Part shown: positions 6,119 to 20,648 of the stretch, piece after piece | Layout of the letters: each line of letters begins with the position of its first letter | Position numbering within the stretch: the first letter of the stretch is position 1 | DNA from: Bacteriovoracaceae bacterium | GTDB taxonomy: Bacteria > Bdellovibrionota > Bacteriovoracia > Bacteriovoracales > Bacteriovoracaceae | Length of the DNA stretch: 20,656 nucleotides | Assembly (NCBI GenBank): GCA_049599895.1 | Contig: JBMYPC010000049.1 | Span: 1 to 20,656, forward strand | Direction: 5' to 3' | The notes under the pieces: generated by a model | What the model saw: the letters and a program-made list of their open reading frames with translations, nothing else | The model's database searches: none | Told to the model about the DNA's origin: nothing | Program-made: the position numbers and the translations under genes

Positions 6119-7366
6119 ATGGATCATTTTACTAAGATTTATCGCGAAGAAAAAATCGAAGCAACAATCAAAGAAATTCGAGAAATTCTTGAGAGTGATG
6201 AAATTGATTATCAGAACATTTTTTTAAGCCTCAATCTTTTAAAATCAAATAAAGAAAAAGCAGAAGTTATTCAGAGTATTTGGCTGCAAACCGAAGAAAA
6301 TGAAAATATTCAAAACCTTTTCCCAATTCTTGAAAGAACATTAAGTACAGAATTTTCATTTGAGAGTTTATTTCAATTCTTGGATGAAACAAGATTAAGA
6401 GGAGCACTTTCTCTTACCAATAATTGTGCGCGGCTAATTACTGAAAAAATTCTTACAGAGAAAAGAATAAACTTTATTGAGCAAGCAAGACTTTCATTTT
6501 CAAATGGAGGGATTTCAAAAGAAATCTCCACTATGTTTAATCTTGCGAGTGACGTCCTTCAAGGACACTCAATTAATTTCCATGATCTTCAAAAAAAATC
6601 GAATGGTGAAAAAAACTTTTTAAAAGAAAAGTTAAAGCTTCTCGTTAAAAGAAAGTTGAAACATTTTACAAGTATACAAAACGATTCCCTCTTATCTGTG
6701 AAATGGATTCTTCAAAACTTTATTAACCCTGATGACGAAAAAGAGATCCAGTTACAACTTGTTCTTCTCAATGAAATTTTTAAAGAATCAGTCAACCAGG
6801 ATGAACTTGGTTTAGTGTTTCAACTATTGCTTGATTACTCACTTTTATTTAAACAAGCTTGGTCTTATGACGTTATTGTGGAATATTCGAAAATCTTTCC
6901 AGATAAAATTGATCCTGTGAAGCTTATTGAACTTAAGAGTTTGTCGAACAATGCAGAGGAGAAAGCAAGCGAGGAAGAAGTTGGAAATGAAGAACTCTCT
7001 GAGGAAACTTCAACTTTTGTAAAAGATCTTCTGTTAAGAAAACCATCGAGGCAGTACGACTTTCTTGAAGTGAAAGAGAAGATTTTTGTACAAGGCCAAC
7101 ACCACTTCATCTCTCTTTTATCAAAGGAAGAGAGAGAAATTATCTATAAAGAATTCCGGGATAAGATGAATGAGAAGGGGATGGAGGGACCTTCTATTGT
7201 CGAGCTTGCCTATCGCCTCGTTCGTACATTTATAAGTGCTTCTGATTACACGATGGCGCTTGAATTTATGAGTCATTTTGAAAAGAACTTTCCAATGACT
7301 TCAAGAGAATCAGAGATTTTTTCTGACTTACACAAAAGAGTGATGAGACTTTGGGAAAGTACTTAA
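6119..7366 (+). CDS. Hypothetical helical protein; positional candidate for a diverged SgmX/Bd2492-type TPR protein
   Basis: 415-aa ORF rich in L/E/K/I/F with no signal peptide or TM segment, an acidic linker (AEEKASEEEVGNEELSEE) and TPR-like C-terminal helices (IVELAYRLVRTFISASDYTMALEFMSHFEKNFP). Overlaps the next gene by 16 bp. The ORF is secure; the function rests on position only. Confidence 0.6.
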   Translation: MDHFTKIYREEKIEATIKEIREILESDEIDYQNIFLSLNLLKSNKEKAEVIQSIWLQTEENENIQNLFPILERTLSTEFSFESLFQFLDETRLRGALSLTNNCARLITEKILTEKRINFIEQARLSFSNGGISKEISTMFNLASDVLQGHSINFHDLQKKSNGEKNFLKEKLKLLVKRKLKHFTSIQNDSLLSVKWILQNFINPDDEKEIQLQLVLLNEIFKESVNQDELGLVFQLLLDYSLLFKQAWSYDVIVEYSKIFPDKIDPVKLIELKSLSNNAEEKASEEEVGNEELSEETSTFVKDLLLRKPSRQYDFLEVKEKIFVQGQHHFISLLSKEEREIIYKEFRDKMNEKGMEGPSIVELAYRLVRTFISASDYTMALEFMSHFEKNFPMTSRESEIFSDLHKRVMRLWEST

Positions 7367-15275: not shown

Positions 15276-15306
15276 AAGCCCCGGTTTTTTCCCGGGGCTT
15301 TTTTTT
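15276..15306 (+). terminator. Rho-independent terminator of rplM-rpsI
   Basis: Inverted repeat AAGCCCCGG (15276-15284) / CCGGGGCTT (15292-15300), 7-nt loop, then a T run to 15306. Confidence 0.9.
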
Positions 15307-15403
15307 ATGTTACTGAAAACGTGAGTTTTCAAGCGGATTAAGCGTTAGCGCACGGTAATTGTATATTAGTCTTTTCGCTAAATAAGAGTTATTTTTTTTA
15401 ACC

Positions 15404-18043
15404 ATGAGTCATCGCTACATTGAAATTAAAGGTGCAAGGACCAATAACCTTAAAGATGTGAATGTTAAAATTCCTCTTGGGCAAATTACTTGTATTATGG
15501 GAGCATCTGGTTCAGGAAAGACAAGTCTCGCTCATCAAACCCTTTATGCGGAATCAAAGCGGCGGTTTCTGAATTCTCTTCCCAATAGTTTTCGGTTTTT
15601 CAGTGAGAAACCAGCTCCCTCCGATGTGGATTCGATTTTTCCAATTTTACCAGTTTGGAGTCTGCCGCAAAATAATCCGATTCTAAGTTCAAGACAAAAT
15701 GTTTTAGACTTAATTGAAGGAACTCATTCCGTTCTTGATCTTTTTTCTTCATGTGGAGAAGTTCATTGCCCTACTCATAAAGTTCCTCTTGAAAAAGTTG
15801 GCTTTGGGCCACAAATTTCAAGATTTCTAAAAAAGTGTCCGGCAAAGGCAAAAGCGATTCATGTTTTTGTTTCAAAAGATGCGTATGCAGAGAACTTTGA
15901 AAGCGGCCCTATCCCGACAAGGTCAGTTAAAGCAAAGTCTTCAGAGGTGCAGAGCTTTGATTCGGGGGATAATTATTTTGAACTTTTTCGTGTGAGATCA
16001 ACTCAAGCTGAAAAGATTGAAGAAAAAATTAATGAGCTTGAGCTTAAAAATGTGAAAAGCTATTTATTAAAATTTGATCATGGAAAAAGCTTTTCAGAGC
16101 TTATCGATTCAAAAAGCTACAAGTGTCCTCACTGTGATTATATATCAGAGTCGAGATTTACGCCTCGAAGTCTTTTAACTCCTTTTAATGGTCTTGGGGC
16201 CTGCTCGAGCTGTAAGGGTTATGGAACAATTTATATCTATGATCGAGCAAAAATGATCAAAGAGCCTTGGAAAACGATTCGAGAAGGTGCGGTCACAATT
16301 CTTCAATCAGCTCATTTTGATTATTATGAACCAATCTTTAAAAGTGAAATTCAAAAAATAGGCCTTTCTATTGACGTGCCTTTTAGTGATCTTCCTGAAA
16401 AAAAGTGGAAGTTTCTTTATGAGGGAGGAGGAAAGTTTCCTGGGCTTAATGCTTTTTTTGATTACCTTGAACGGAAACGTTACAAAAAAACAATTCGAAT
16501 TTTTACAAAACGAATCCAAACGGAAGTTCTTTGTCCTGTTTGTGAAGGGGCCAGGATCACCAAAGAAAATCATTCTTATGGTGTGAGAACAACTAAAGAG
16601 AATATTTTTTACAAAGACTCACTTTTATTAACGATTTCAGACGCGATTAAAAAATTTGAAGAGGCTAAAAAGGAGCATAACTTTAAAAATAAACAGTTTT
16701 TAAAGTTTATGAACTCTTTGAAAATTTGTGAAAATCTTGGGCTTGGTTATCTTCAGTTTAATCGAAAAGTTAAAAGTCTTACAGCCAGTGAATATCAAAG
16801 ACTCCTTCTTGTTAAATATTTTAGTTTTCAAGGCACCGGCAGCCTTTTTATTTTAGACGAGCCATCGCTTGGTCTTCGAGTAGAAGAGCAAAAGAAAATT
16901 TACTATTACCTCGAAAGGCTCAAGGCCCTCGGGAATACAGTACTTCTTGTTGATCATTCTGAGTTTCTCCAGTCAAAAGTAGATTATCGGATAGAGATGG
17001 GACCAGGTGCAGGTATTCATGGTGGAGAAATTCTTTACCAAGGAAAAAATAAAGATGCGACAAAGTCTACTCGGGCGAAGAAGCTTTCAAAAAAATCGAT
17101 AAAACCAGCAAAGGCCTTAAAGTTTGAAAAGGTTCACTTTTGGAATAAAACTTGTCCCGATCTTTCTGTTCCTCTGGGAGAGCTGACTCACATTTCAGGT
17201 CCTCCGGGGGTGGGAAAAACTTCTCTTTTTATAAAAACTTTAGCGAATGCCCATGCAAAATTAAACCAAGAAGAAAAGGTTTACGATGGAGATCTTCGCT
17301 ATAAAAAGATTCACAACCTTGAAAAGTTTAAGTCTGTTTATACAATTGATGCCTCGGCTCTTCACTCGAACTCAAGATCAACAGTCGGCACTTATCTTGA
17401 AATTTCTCCGGTGGTTCGAAACTATTATGCGAATCTTTTTCATTCTCAAAAGATGGGGCTTGAGAAAGGTCACTTCTCTCCAAACTCTGCTAAAGGACGT
17501 TGTTCAACTTGCGAAGGGCGAGGGTTTCTTGAAGCTGAGATGAAGTACTTTGAGAGTGTGAGATACACTTGTCCTGATTGTGAAGGACATAAACTTAATC
17601 CTCTTTACGCCAATATTACTGATGGAAAATATAAGTTTAAAGAAATCGTGAAAGTACCCTTGTCTGAAATATGGGATATCATTGTGACCTCGCCAAAGTT
17701 TGTTATTGTAAAAGAGCTTCTTGAAAAATTTCATCTGGATTATCTTAACTTGGGAAGACCTCTTACTTCTCTTTCTGGTGGCGAGAGGCAAAGGCTAAAA
17801 CTTGCAAAGCTCTTTCTTAAAAGTCATAAAGAAAGTCTGTTTGTTATCGAGAATCTCTCGTTTGGTCTTTCAAGCTTAGAACTTCTCTCAATTGGCAATT
17901 ATTTAAGGCAATTAACCGAAATGGACAATACAATCCTCGTGATTGACCCCAACCAAAAAGTCTCTAAATTCTCACATAACTCACTAGAATTAAAGGAGTC
18001 TCAAGGTTCTAAGATAAGGTCAGAGCTCAAAGAAAATAAATAG
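15404..18043 (+). CDS. UvrA-family ABC ATPase paralogue with one degenerate ATPase site
   Basis: IKGARTNNLK, GASGSGKTSLA, TLYAESKRRF, Zn ligands (CPTH/CPHC, CSSC/CPVC, CSTC/CPDC), LDEPS, EMGPGAGIHGG, GPPGVGKTS, LSGGERQRLKLA. Several motifs are degenerate (see findings), so the uvrA symbol is withheld. Confidence 0.9.
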   Translation: MSHRYIEIKGARTNNLKDVNVKIPLGQITCIMGASGSGKTSLAHQTLYAESKRRFLNSLPNSFRFFSEKPAPSDVDSIFPILPVWSLPQNNPILSSRQNVLDLIEGTHSVLDLFSSCGEVHCPTHKVPLEKVGFGPQISRFLKKCPAKAKAIHVFVSKDAYAENFESGPIPTRSVKAKSSEVQSFDSGDNYFELFRVRSTQAEKIEEKINELELKNVKSYLLKFDHGKSFSELIDSKSYKCPHCDYISESRFTPRSLLTPFNGLGACSSCKGYGTIYIYDRAKMIKEPWKTIREGAVTILQSAHFDYYEPIFKSEIQKIGLSIDVPFSDLPEKKWKFLYEGGGKFPGLNAFFDYLERKRYKKTIRIFTKRIQTEVLCPVCEGARITKENHSYGVRTTKENIFYKDSLLLTISDAIKKFEEAKKEHNFKNKQFLKFMNSLKICENLGLGYLQFNRKVKSLTASEYQRLLLVKYFSFQGTGSLFILDEPSLGLRVEEQKKIYYYLERLKALGNTVLLVDHSEFLQSKVDYRIEMGPGAGIHGGEILYQGKNKDATKSTRAKKLSKKSIKPAKALKFEKVHFWNKTCPDLSVPLGELTHISGPPGVGKTSLFIKTLANAHAKLNQEEKVYDGDLRYKKIHNLEKFKSVYTIDASALHSNSRSTVGTYLEISPVVRNYYANLFHSQKMGLEKGHFSPNSAKGRCSTCEGRGFLEAEMKYFESVRYTCPDCEGHKLNPLYANITDGKYKFKEIVKVPLSEIWDIIVTSPKFVIVKELLEKFHLDYLNLGRPLTSLSGGERQRLKLAKLFLKSHKESLFVIENLSFGLSSLELLSIGNYLRQLTEMDNTILVIDPNQKVSKFSHNSLELKESQGSKIRSELKENK

Positions 18044-18118: not shown

Positions 18119-18844
18119 TTGATTAATAAATATTTTGCCCTTATTGGTCTTGTTGTTCTTTGGTCTCATCAGATTTTTGCTGTAAGTTTCATCCCGATAT
18201 CTTTTGATGAGCAAGTGGAGCAATCCGATTCCATTGTTCATGCAGTGGTGAAGGGAAATAGTTATAAAAAGGCTTCGAATGATGAAGTCGTCACAATGAC
18301 TTCACTAAAAATTTTAAGTTACACCGGCATTAGTAATTCAAGAATGGTGAATCCCAATAGCTTTAAAGTTGTGAGCCCTGGTGGGGTCTGGAATGGGATT
18401 GTTCATAAAATCGATGCTTCTCCCAAGTTTAAAGAAGGGGAAGAAGTTGTTCTTTTTTTAAAAGAAACAGGAAGAGGGTTTGTTGTTCTCAATCTTGCTC
18501 TTGGGAAGTACAAAGTTGAAAAATATGACGGAGAAAAAATTCTTAAGAGTGAAATTTTCCCTAAACATCCCTTAATGAAACCTCTTCCTCTCTCTAAGCT
18601 GAAAGAATTGGTTTCGGTTATCAAGCGAGGGGAGACGTTTAAAGGCTTTAACCAAAAACAAGCTGTTGTGAAGAGAAACTTTGAAGAGTCCGGTGAGGGG
18701 CGGGGTCCAGCTTCTCTTGGAAATTCTTCTAAAAATCAAAGTGCATTTGACAATGAAAACGGTCTTACTCTTGTAACGCTCGTTATACTCTTTCTTTTGA
18801 TTGGGATTGTTTATCGATATGCAGTCAGAAACAGCAAAAATTAA
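18119..18844 (+). CDS. Exported, C-terminally membrane-anchored protein with a putative OB-fold (NTR/TIMP-like) domain
   Basis: TTG start with GAGGA SD; signal peptide ending QIFA; domain pattern SFDEQVEQSDSIVHAVV...VVT...VVSPGG...PKFKEGEEVVLFL...LALGKYKV; linker containing RGPAS; TM LTLVTLVILFLLIGIVY plus basic tail. Confidence 0.7.
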   Translation: MINKYFALIGLVVLWSHQIFAVSFIPISFDEQVEQSDSIVHAVVKGNSYKKASNDEVVTMTSLKILSYTGISNSRMVNPNSFKVVSPGGVWNGIVHKIDASPKFKEGEEVVLFLKETGRGFVVLNLALGKYKVEKYDGEKILKSEIFPKHPLMKPLPLSKLKELVSVIKRGETFKGFNQKQAVVKRNFEESGEGRGPASLGNSSKNQSAFDNENGLTLVTLVILFLLIGIVYRYAVRNSKN

Positions 18845-20648
18845 TACTTGTTCAAAGCTATTATTTTTTGTCTTGATTCTTATTTCAAGTCCTGGGCATT
18901 CGTATGTAAAATCATTAACTGGCTCAGGCAAGGCCATCAAGTGGAATGACTCAACAGAAGAAATTCGGTTCTACCTTGATAAAAACTCTGCTCCATCCCA
19001 GATTGGCTCTAATGACTTTGAGAGTATTTTCGTCGGCGCGCTTAATAGCTGGAATGAGTTGGGGAAATTCAACCTTACTTATGAAATTACAAACTCAACG
19101 GCATCAAGACGAAATGATGTTTATTTTTCTGATTTCTTAGTCGGTAGTAATGCCTTAGGTGTTACTCGCGTTTCATTCAATCAGGCCACAGGTCAGATTA
19201 TTGAAACAGATATTATGTTGAGTACTTTTCTTGTGAACAAAGATTCATCCACTGATGAATATCTTGGAAATATTTTAACACATGAAATAGGCCATGCTCT
19301 TGGTCTTTCTCATTCACAAATTGCTTATTCCACTATGTTTTATAAAGCCACTCGAGGACAACACACTCTATCTGAAGATGATAAGAATGGTTTTTATGAT
19401 GTTTATTCAATTAAAAAGTCTGGAACGGGAACAGTAAAAGGCAAAATTGTTGGAGGCCAAGACCTTGTGGGAATTTTTGGTTCTCATGTTCAGCTGATCT
19501 CTGTTGATGATTTGAGTGTTGTGGTTTCAACTGTCTCTGAGCCCAATGGAGATTTCCAGTTTAATAATGTGGATAAGTCGAAAGAATATTTTTTAAAAGT
19601 TGCGCCCTTGGAGCTTCTTGAAACACTTCCGACATATTACGAAGATGTCACCTCCGGCTTTTGTCTTGGCTATACAGATTACAAGCCTTCTCTTTGGCAA
19701 GGTTGTGGAAGTTCAAGTGAAGGAAAGCCTGTTAATATTAATTTTCAAAGTCAAAGCACAATCGATGCTGGCTTTGTCACGATTCGATGTAATACAGATG
19801 TTCCTGCGCAATATCTTCTTGATCGAGAGGATGGTTACGAACTTGATCTCTCTAAAAGGACCAATACTTACTTAGGCTATTTTTCGGAGGTTGATCTTAG
19901 AAATTCTGCAGTTGATAAAATCCACCTTGATCTTTCAAATGTTGCGCTTCCGGCTCTTTCAACCGGAGATCAAAATCTTCTTGAAATCTCAATCATGGCC
20001 CAATCTCTTTATTCGCCTCTTAAGATTAAGTCGAAAGTGATTTTTCAAGATTATACAGAGATTGAATATGGAGCCACGGATTGGATTGATAACGATCTTA
20101 ATCCTCAGACCGATTTAAAGTTTACAATTCTTTTAAGTCCCGTTGCTTCAAGTAATGTTTTTGATATTGAGGTTACTCCCCAGCATTTTGAAACTTTAAA
20201 TTTTAATATCAATGGAAAAAATGAAGTTCTCACAGGTTATTTATCAGGAGTTTCCAATTATTCTCTTGATGATTACTTTCCAGATTATGATGCTTTTAAA
20301 GCAGCTCTTCCCAATTATTTATTCTCTGCACGGGCCTATACTTTGAAGAGTAATGGGGACAAAGTTTATTTAAAGTCACCCTATGTCGCGGAAAATTACG
20401 AGCTTTATGACAATAGATGGTGCCCAGATGCTGATCTAAGCTACAAGCTCAGTCCCAATACAGTTTCAACGACGAGCAGTATCATTACCACGACGACATC
20501 TAACGAAGATAGTGGAGAAATTGCTCTTGGCGGATGTGGTCAAATAAATACCGGCTCAGGTCCAGGAAACCCTGGTTCAGCTCCATTAATTGCTATGATG
20601 ATGGGAATTCTTCTTTTCTTATTGCCTAGAATTCAATATCTTAAATAG
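18819..20648 (+). CDS. Secreted matrixin (M10-like metzincin) metalloprotease with a prealbumin/carboxypeptidase-regulatory-like domain and C-terminal sorting signal
   Basis: HEIGHALGLSH (19281-19313), Met-turn STMF (Met at 19335), upstream ALGVT and IIETDIML, downstream LSEDDKNG; next domain GTVKGKI...GSHVQL...NGDFQF; Ser/Thr linker, GGCG, hydrophobic stretch and basic end. The start is likely ATG18819, overlapping the upstream gene by 26 bp. Confidence 0.9.
   Translation: MQSETAKINTCSKLLFFVLILISSPGHSYVKSLTGSGKAIKWNDSTEEIRFYLDKNSAPSQIGSNDFESIFVGALNSWNELGKFNLTYEITNSTASRRNDVYFSDFLVGSNALGVTRVSFNQATGQIIETDIMLSTFLVNKDSSTDEYLGNILTHEIGHALGLSHSQIAYSTMFYKATRGQHTLSEDDKNGFYDVYSIKKSGTGTVKGKIVGGQDLVGIFGSHVQLISVDDLSVVVSTVSEPNGDFQFNNVDKSKEYFLKVAPLELLETLPTYYEDVTSGFCLGYTDYKPSLWQGCGSSSEGKPVNINFQSQSTIDAGFVTIRCNTDVPAQYLLDREDGYELDLSKRTNTYLGYFSEVDLRNSAVDKIHLDLSNVALPALSTGDQNLLEISIMAQSLYSPLKIKSKVIFQDYTEIEYGATDWIDNDLNPQTDLKFTILLSPVASSNVFDIEVTPQHFETLNFNINGKNEVLTGYLSGVSNYSLDDYFPDYDAFKAALPNYLFSARAYTLKSNGDKVYLKSPYVAENYELYDNRWCPDADLSYKLSPNTVSTTSSIITTTTSNEDSGEIALGGCGQINTGSGPGNPGSAPLIAMMMGILLFLLPRIQYLK

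Follow-up and report, generated by a model that had tools for sequence, protein, structure and literature searches.

Sequence and fold of the UvrA paralogue

The window, that is, the whole stretch of 20,656 nucleotides (nt) analyzed here from a Bacteriovoracaceae bacterium (contig JBMYPC010000049.1), carries downstream of rpsI one intact open reading frame (ORF) of 879 amino acids (aa) that encodes a paralogue of the DNA repair protein UvrA. Residue numbers of the paralogue refer to this chain, and its features are collected in Table 1. An initial annotation of the window, made from the DNA letters, had placed a series of intact and degenerate ATPase motifs in this frame; every one of them was recovered at its coordinates, and the Zn ligands that it described as surviving, 12 in number, are all present.

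The protein scores below the cut-offs of the canonical UvrA models, with 413 bits against TIGR00630 (cut-off 729.8) and 410 against PRK00349 (cut-off 1147). At the level of the fold, the paralogue belongs to the UvrA family, with two ATP-binding cassette (ABC) nucleotide-binding domains per chain and the UvrA-specific Zn modules and inserts. An AlphaFold2 model built from a 120-row alignment reached a mean predicted local distance difference test (pLDDT) score of 91.7. A Foldseek search with this model returned UvrA structures as the best matches over the whole length, headed by 2R6F with a template modeling (TM) score of 0.75, and VIA-align superimposed 822 residues on 2r6f_A with a Z-score of 32.7 and a root mean square deviation of 6.2. 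The insertion domain and the Zn3 hairpin of class I UvrA are both present.

Table 1. Position of the paralogue gene and of its features in the window (homologues as defined in the text)
Feature	Position	Strand	Remark
Hairpin resembling a terminator, with T run, between rpsI and paralogue gene	15276..15308	+	
UvrA paralogue, full UvrA fold, distal ATPase site catalytically degenerate	15404..18043	+	one intact ORF, 879 aa
GARTNNLK	15431-15454	+	sequence motif
Walker A1 (proximal), intact	15500..15526	+	kept in 166/166 homologues
Altered DNA-probing wedge/dimer-interface helix	15587..15601	+	S62, F65, F66 for Y62, Q65, F66
Q-loop 1 SLPQN (Q89, proximal), intact	15659..15673	+	
Zn1 module (C122, H125, C241, C244)	15767..16135	+	encloses diverged domain at UvrB-binding position (aa 126-240)
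Zn2 module (C267, C270, C377, C380) and insertion (DNA-binding) domain	16202..16543	+	PF17755 match; 110-aa spacing as in A-type UvrA
R454 and degenerate signature 1 LTASE (16778-16792)	16763..16792	+	R454 equivalent to adenine-stacking R480 of distal site, kept
Walker B1 LFILDEPS (D485, E486; proximal), intact	16844..16867	+	
H-loop 1 VDH (H518; proximal), intact	16949..16957	+	
Walker A2 GPPGVGKTS (distal)	17198..17224	+	intact in window protein
Q-loop 2 IDAS (distal)	17345..17356	+	without Gln
Zn3 module and beta-hairpin (C700, C703, C723, C726), A-type	17501..17581	+	subfamily consensus (E/D)MQ(F/Y)LED
R785, then intact signature 2 LSGGE (17771-17785; proximal)	17756..17785	+	Gln in canonical UvrA at R785
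Walker B2 LFVIEN (distal)	17837..17854	+	EN for DE
H-loop 2 VIDPN (distal)	17939..17953	+	without His; then shortened C-terminus without GPxGG loop

Loss of the distal ATPase site

The two ATPase sites of a UvrA chain are composite: the proximal site consists of ATP-binding domain I and signature II, and the distal site of ATP-binding domain II and signature I (PMC6486640; papers are cited by PubMed Central accession, here and below). The same rule underlay the initial annotation. Of 16 standard catalytic positions, eight per site, the window protein keeps 8/8 at the proximal site and 1/8 at the distal site. Among these positions the lesions are confined to the distal site, as had been proposed, and the chance that seven changes would all land in one site is approximately 0.0014.

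A set of homologues was assembled by pooling the 120 best matches with the single-length matches of a profile search; 260 sequences were fetched and the 166 of 820–930 aa retained, with the exclusion of double-length proteins and fragments. Identity among the best 120 is 37–50%. The eight proximal residues (Walker A1, Q1, Walker B1 DE, H1 and LSGGE) are intact in all 166 proteins. The distal Walker B DE pair is found in none of them, with EN in its place in 150; the distal H-loop His is found in five, the distal Q-loop Gln in one and the SGGE of signature 1 in one. The GPxGG loop that follows H-loop 2 is absent throughout, leaving a tail of 13–38 aa against approximately 50. The alignment of homologues that had been proposed as a check thus shows the same distal motif set lost across the subfamily, and the motifs point to a single active site in the paralogue.

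Walker A2 follows a different course. Its survival, stated in the initial annotation, holds for the window protein and for 135 of the 166 homologues, but not for the subfamily as a whole: it is lost in the other 31, and also in a 760-aa orthologue from genome G019. Given these 31 losses, Walker A2 is not essential in the subfamily.

R785 and nucleotide binding

The residue five positions before the signature has been described as absolutely conserved at both sites, being Gln where binding is weak (proximal) and Arg where it is tight (distal), and that distal Arg is implicated in tight binding (PMC6486640). The paralogue carries an Arg at the proximal position, R785, which is Arg in 166/166 homologues; among 286 intact UvrA modules the same position is Gln in 270 and Arg in 6. 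The distal Arg, R454, is found in 132/166 homologues, so that the paralogue has Arg at both positions, unlike the class I rule of one Gln and one Arg. R785 has the appearance of a compensating change at the surviving site.

The distal Arg (the equivalent of R480) and Walker A2 are kept together in those 132 proteins and lost together in 17, counts that constitute no test because the members are related. Since the pair is retained in most members, their dead distal site probably still binds nucleotide. Degenerate ABC sites generally still do so. The live proximal site, for its part, may have become independent of the dead distal site. This independence matters because the proximal site of canonical UvrA stays empty once the distal lysine is mutated (PMC12796330).

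DNA wedge and UvrB-binding position

In UvrA, Y62, Q65 and F66 constitute a wedge that probes the DNA (PMC12796330). The Tyr-Gln-Phe wedge of class I is absent from the window protein, and the subfamily reads S/D62-F65-F66, with Y62 in 22, F65 in 159 and F66 in 162 of the 166 homologues. Some canonical-type UvrAs likewise have an altered wedge helix, together with 108–110 aa of insertion spacing (L185 in G001, L165 in G133, L186 in G005 and L232 in G128); all of them come from genomes that bear the paralogue.

The domain at the UvrB-binding position has the right size and place and keeps two arginines, with a changed Asp-Arg and helix motif, and it gives no match to the Pfam family UvrA_inter. 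HHalign relates it to canonical UvrB-binding domains with a probability of 94% and an E-value of 1.6e-8, over an aligned stretch that includes the Zn ligands. It is the least conserved part of the subfamily (mean 0.38), within which R173, E193 and R196 are conserved (R173 in 161/166; Arg or Lys at position 196 in 165/166). The two kept arginines align with the canonical G(F/Y)xR and DR motifs, whose arginines we take to contact UvrB. Folded alone without an alignment, the domain gave a poor model (pLDDT 58.9), for which no structural match above a Z-score of 5 was found. The insert within Zn1 measures 110–124 aa in aligned subfamily members and 101 aa in G019, against 4–11 aa in class II copies. 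Most canonical copies in the family have lost Zn1 ligands, whereas the paralogue keeps them.

Selection, distribution and locus

Three independent unsaturated pairs among 48 genes gave ratios of nonsynonymous to synonymous substitution (dN/dS) of 0.046, 0.032 and 0.021 for the paralogue gene, and of 0.023 for the distal motif codons alone; the pairs are congeners of one genus, and the gene of the window is not among them. These values (0.02–0.05), together with the pattern common to the 166 homologues, bear out the earlier view of a selected loss rather than random decay.

Named homologues come from Bacteriovorax, Halobacteriovorax and Peredibacter, and the family is accordingly taken to be the Bacteriovorax group of predatory bacteria. 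Cultured hosts include Halobacteriovorax sp. GB3 (WP_273871675.1) and Peredibacter sp. HCB2-198 (WP_408098488.1), in which the protein is annotated only as 'hypothetical protein'. At a threshold of E<=1e-150, the subfamily profile gives hits in 151 of 187 genomes from the order; 149 of these have a single match, and each of the other 2 has two partial matches that lie on separate contigs. In a sample of the phylum (151 genomes), subfamily members are separated from other UvrAs by a gap in score (964 against 555 bits), and no member was found outside the family. Neither the listed 25 of 572 plasmid matches nor the aligned double-length UvrAs among the matches listed yielded, respectively, a subfamily member or the degenerate pattern. 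Unrelated UvrAs from a wider collection scan served as outgroups and not for distribution.

Canonical uvrA is matched in 183/187 genomes of the order and in 150 of the 151 that bear the paralogue, the exception being G193, which is 85% complete. The canonical uvrA sought elsewhere in the genome of the window lies on contig G000:C77 and encodes a protein of 935 aa, 27% identical to the paralogue, with all motifs intact. Approximately 7 kb from it, a 1183-aa frame with a partial UvrB match is read as Mfd. The genome further contains a UvrB gene truncated where its contig stops and, likewise at the edge of a contig, a fragment from the C-terminus of UvrC. In G019 (sister family, 0.9 Mb, 96% complete), the 760-aa orthologue directly follows rpsI, and a canonical-type uvrA and uvrC are kept. 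Both UvrAs of this genome are eroded (L018:1501-3783 and L180:1361-3862), the canonical-type copy having an insertion spacing of 71 aa and no YARQ wedge.

The gene order tamA-rplM-rpsI-paralogue-hypothetical-matrixin is found in nearly all loci with readable flanks, with no drug-biosynthesis or mobile context at the paralogue locus. Five paralogue-negative genomes were checked, and canonical uvrA was the only uvrA found in them. In four of the five, rpsI directly adjoins the hypothetical gene, indicating a clean deletion of the paralogue. Because the neighbors stay beside rpsI after this deletion, they are independent of the paralogue, and a functional link with the downstream genes was discarded.

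The terminator-like hairpin that separates rpsI from the paralogue gene suggests that the latter has its own transcript; similar hairpins were seen by eye upstream of the paralogue in many relatives. Inspection by eye of many relatives (L031-L060 and others) also showed a -10-like hexamer 5–9 nt before the ATG, just past the rpsI terminator, with no visible ribosome-binding site, and the transcripts of these relatives are possibly leaderless. Upstream of the paralogue or of canonical uvrA, no common palindrome was found apart from the terminator stem, and no RNA holder is listed for the paralogue locus.

Elsewhere in the window, positions 18119-20648 encode a protein of 241 aa that belongs to no known family, and a matrixin-like metalloprotease of 615 aa; both genes travel with rplM-rpsI across the family, whether the paralogue is present or absent. 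By eye, the two proteins have predicted N-terminal hydrophobic segments and C-terminal membrane anchors, and the protease gives a weak match to a myxosortase-dependent family. A 415-aa protein without a Pfam match is encoded at 6119-7366, between accC and a tamB-like gene.

Origin from the A-type lineage

Trees were computed from 199, 42 and 28 sequences, the mixture-model trees being quick searches; G019, a long branch, was excluded from the smallest of them. The trees divide the sampled intact UvrAs into two sides. The B side (support 99–100) contains the E. coli type, the canonical copy of the family and the C-halves of fused double-length proteins. The A side contains the second UvrA of other Bdellovibrionota, Gemmatimonadota and Acidobacteriota, and the N-halves of the Verrucomicrobia and betaproteobacterial fusions. 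Both mixture-model trees attach the paralogue to this side, and a branch with a support of 92, which is not starred, sets it apart from the rest together with the A copies of Bdellovibrionota. A FastTree run with class II outgroups placed the paralogue at the root; this was read as long-branch attraction, and the mixture-model trees were used instead. Grouping of the paralogue with the canonical UvrA of the family was rejected by the approximately unbiased (AU) test (p-AU 0.010), which rules out a recent copy of the genome's own uvrA.

The paralogue and A-type UvrA also have in common the Q-loop and hairpin characters and the 110-aa insertion spacing. Of 121 genomes sampled outside the family, 118 give two or more UvrA matches, which need not equal the number of copies, and a full-length A-type match is listed for 109, the final five or so scoring near the B-type level. 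Inside the family, an intact A-type copy is found among the top matches of 0/30 genomes. Because the place in the tree, the AU test, the sequence characters and the distribution of A-type copies agree, the paralogue is most simply the A copy of the family after loss of its distal site.

Nearly all sampled Bdellovibrionota outside the family have two intact UvrAs (e.g., L015 with L170 in G026, and L012 with L169 in G024), a pair spread across the phylum that may in its own right form a heterodimer not yet described. A second UvrA, intact, 924 aa long and of uncertain type, occurs in a family member without the degenerate paralogue (L236, G131:C34). In a Gemmatimonadota chromosome (L096, G314:C1:2758916-2761669), an A-type UvrA is the only UvrA, together with two uvrC-like matches.

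Discussion

Relation to known UvrA proteins

The paralogue resembles class I UvrA (E. coli; Geobacillus 2R6F/3UWX; the C. thermocellum 9GXK series; TIGR00630) in fold, domain order, the three Zn modules, the insertion domain, the hairpin, the domain at the UvrB-binding position and an intact proximal site. It differs in that its distal site is devoid of the Walker B DE, the H-loop His, the Q-loop Gln and the GG of the signature; besides, the proximal Gln is changed to Arg, wedge residues Y62 and Q65 are replaced, the C-terminal loop is lost, and the protein is always a second copy. The A-type second UvrAs of Bdellovibrionota and the N-halves of the fused double UvrAs have the same descent, Q-loop, hairpin and 110-aa spacing and also sit beside a B-type UvrA, but the A-type second copies, unlike the paralogue, keep both ATPase sites and the proximal Gln. 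Two uvrA genes, bd0159 and bd2442, are annotated in B. bacteriovorus (PMC3593177). Fused double-length UvrAs, which are also reported in Planctomycetes (PMC8567305), have two modules per chain, unlike the single ORF of the paralogue. Both halves of the Planctomycete fusion fall on the B side of the tree, and it is hence different from the Verrucomicrobia and betaproteobacterial fusion.

Class IIa UvrAs (Ecm16, DrrC and Deinococcus UvrA2) are, like the paralogue, second UvrAs beside a canonical one, with an unclear or non-repair function (PMC9328131). They lack Zn1 and the UvrB-binding domain and keep both sites by motif, whereas the paralogue is without one site but retains Zn1 and a domain at the UvrB-binding position. 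Mutants engineered at the distal site (E. coli E858A/K646A, Geobacillus E854A/K643A and C. thermocellum K647A) are disabled at the same site as the paralogue; they are repair-defective as homodimers, whereas the paralogue is under purifying selection and shows a compensating-looking change at the other site.

Outside the UvrA family, asymmetric ABC ATPases (CFTR, TAP, TM287/288 and MRP1) combine one consensus and one degenerate composite site; the latter retains Walker A but no longer has the catalytic Glu, His switch or signature. These proteins are membrane transporters, unlike the paralogue.

Full-text literature searches listed no paper that describes this subfamily or a natural UvrA in which one site is dead; most subscription papers, including the UvrA classification papers, lie outside that literature. 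The main text of PMC11656739 has no mention of uvr genes. The suggestion of an undescribed subfamily therefore stands as far as this literature goes, and the paralogue is a real, conserved, selected and apparently undescribed UvrA variant, not a new kind of system.

A proposed mixed dimer with canonical UvrA

We consider that there is about an even chance that the paralogue is an accessory, unequal subunit of a UvrA heterodimer formed with canonical UvrA, with three live sites, in repair or DNA-damage sensing. It would pair with canonical UvrA via ATP-binding domain I and would use signature domain II, along with its hairpin and insertion domain, to grip the DNA. The distal pocket of the paralogue would hold a nucleotide without hydrolysis, or stay empty where Walker A2 is lost, and R785 would let its proximal site bind ATP tightly with no help from the distal site. 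The subunit would thus be held in a state like that of UvrA E858A, which binds DNA and loads UvrB regardless of damage, and the canonical partner would bring the tyrosine wedge and the only working distal site, the one that decides on damage and releases the complex. The resulting dimer would have three live sites rather than four, and a built-in left-right asymmetry. Its formation is predicted from sequence comparisons, as follows.

A-type modules occur on the N-terminal side of a fused B-side module within double-length UvrAs, and in G224 (L150:2152-7491, G224:C19) a B-type uvrA (862 aa, no insertion domain) and an A-type uvrA (915 aa) are in tandem, 3 nt apart. Among the full-length B copies of Bdellovibrionota outside the family, 78 of the 110 listed are short; those aligned have no insertion domain, as is the case for most fused C-halves. 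The insertion domain contributes DNA contacts (PMC7835731), and short B copies plausibly need an A partner because the aligned ones lack it. The E. coli mutant defective in distal hydrolysis attaches to DNA and loads UvrB even where there is no damage, supports no repair and sticks to DNA as a homodimer (PMC5007444); because of this behavior, release would require a live partner, and a distal-dead subunit is easier to explain beside a live one. UvrA protomers already act unequally on a lesion (PMC11985968). Finally, canonical copies with an eroded wedge and a shortened insertion domain were found in 4/13 paralogue-positive and 0/30 paralogue-negative genomes.

Several observations weigh against this heterodimer. 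The four eroded canonical copies may represent one event (three group together in the tree, and the fourth was picked for its low score), and 9/13 canonical copies of paralogue-positive genomes keep an ordinary interface helix. No paralogue is counted in 36/187 genomes (G019 among them only by threshold), with the clean deletion described above in 4/5 of those checked, and canonical UvrA of negative genomes keeps YARQ and a full insertion domain in 30/30; since this protein looks self-sufficient, pairing would not be obligate for the canonical copy. The genes for the paralogue and canonical UvrA are not neighbors in the family. The genomes with fused double UvrAs also carry a separate single UvrA (whole in 4/5, in fragments in the fifth), and the fused C-halves form a clade apart from the Bdellovibrionota B copies, so that the fusion is an analogy and not the same pair. 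In addition, G314 has its A-type UvrA alone, self-pairing positions 55 and 66 of the paralogue are still aromatic, R785 would equally suit an autonomous site, and the branch of the paralogue is long, its exact place within clade A not being starred.

Alternative functions

The main alternative, which we regard as less likely, is in line with the reading of the initial annotation: a homodimer that acts autonomously, apart from canonical UvrA, has both of its proximal sites live and does not discriminate damage when it binds DNA. Such a homodimer would clear DNA of intercalators or bound proteins, the activity proposed for class II UvrAs, or would load UvrB or work with Mfd independently of lesions. 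R785 gives a tight-site residue to the surviving site, the wedge tyrosine is lost, and undamaged DNA stimulates the proximal ATPase of Geobacillus UvrA K643A more than tenfold (PMC6486640); yet K647A leaves both sites empty in cryo-electron microscopy (PMC12796330), and in E. coli, UvrA homodimers with dead distal sites become trapped on DNA (PMC5007444). Interface positions P80 and P83 are invariant and differ from those of canonical UvrA, and are compatible with a self-interface of the paralogue's own. Independence would also agree with the free loss of the paralogue gene, with the lone A-type UvrA of G314 and with Ecm16, which functions without UvrA, B, C or D (PMC9328131), but canonical uvrA accompanies the paralogue in all but one genome, no drug-biosynthesis or mobile context surrounds it, and the descent characters do not group it with class II plasmid copies, nor does it share with class IIa the loss of Zn1 and of the domain at the UvrB-binding position. 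The role outside nucleotide excision repair that was put forward for the protein finds no support as stated, given the domain at the UvrB-binding position with its two arginines, the insertion domain and the Zn3 hairpin. Because these parts are kept, the paralogue co-occurs with canonical UvrA, and the A-type lineage is fused or adjacent to another UvrA, a role inside repair appears at least as likely as one outside.

Less probable still is a regulatory decoy that titrates canonical UvrA monomers, UvrB or Mfd and thereby damps or times repair, for example in the non-replicating attack phase as opposed to growth inside prey. Catalytic loss with kept interaction surfaces is typical of pseudo-enzyme regulators, a separate transcript is predicted, and the paralogue is dispensable in about a fifth of the genomes. 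A decaying duplicate of the genome's own uvrA, to which the 27% identity to canonical UvrA, the long branch and the repeated losses might point, is refuted beyond serious doubt by the low dN/dS, distal motif codons included, by the same pattern in 166 proteins with intact ORFs at a fixed locus, and by the AU rejection of a recent duplication.

Implications

The UvrAs studied so far all depend on the two ATP sites together, and DNA repair fails in distal-site mutants; the existence of a natural, selected UvrA whose distal site does not work shows that rewiring of the four-site cycle is possible. The change from Gln to Arg directly tests the proposal that one residue sets a weak or a tight site. 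Somewhat short of an even chance, we think, is the broader proposal that Bdellovibrionota sense damage with a heterodimeric UvrA whose work is divided, and that in the Bacteriovorax lineage one subunit lost the distal ATPase and the wedge tyrosine and moved the high-affinity Arg to the proximal site, making a natural three-site asymmetric sensor. If true, this sensor would be a ready-made separation-of-function system for the role of each of the four ATP sites of UvrA. Pairing of the paralogue with canonical UvrA would provide the first heterodimeric UvrA with evidence, within the literature searched, and would explain why two uvrA genes occur across the phylum, one of them often without the insertion domain.

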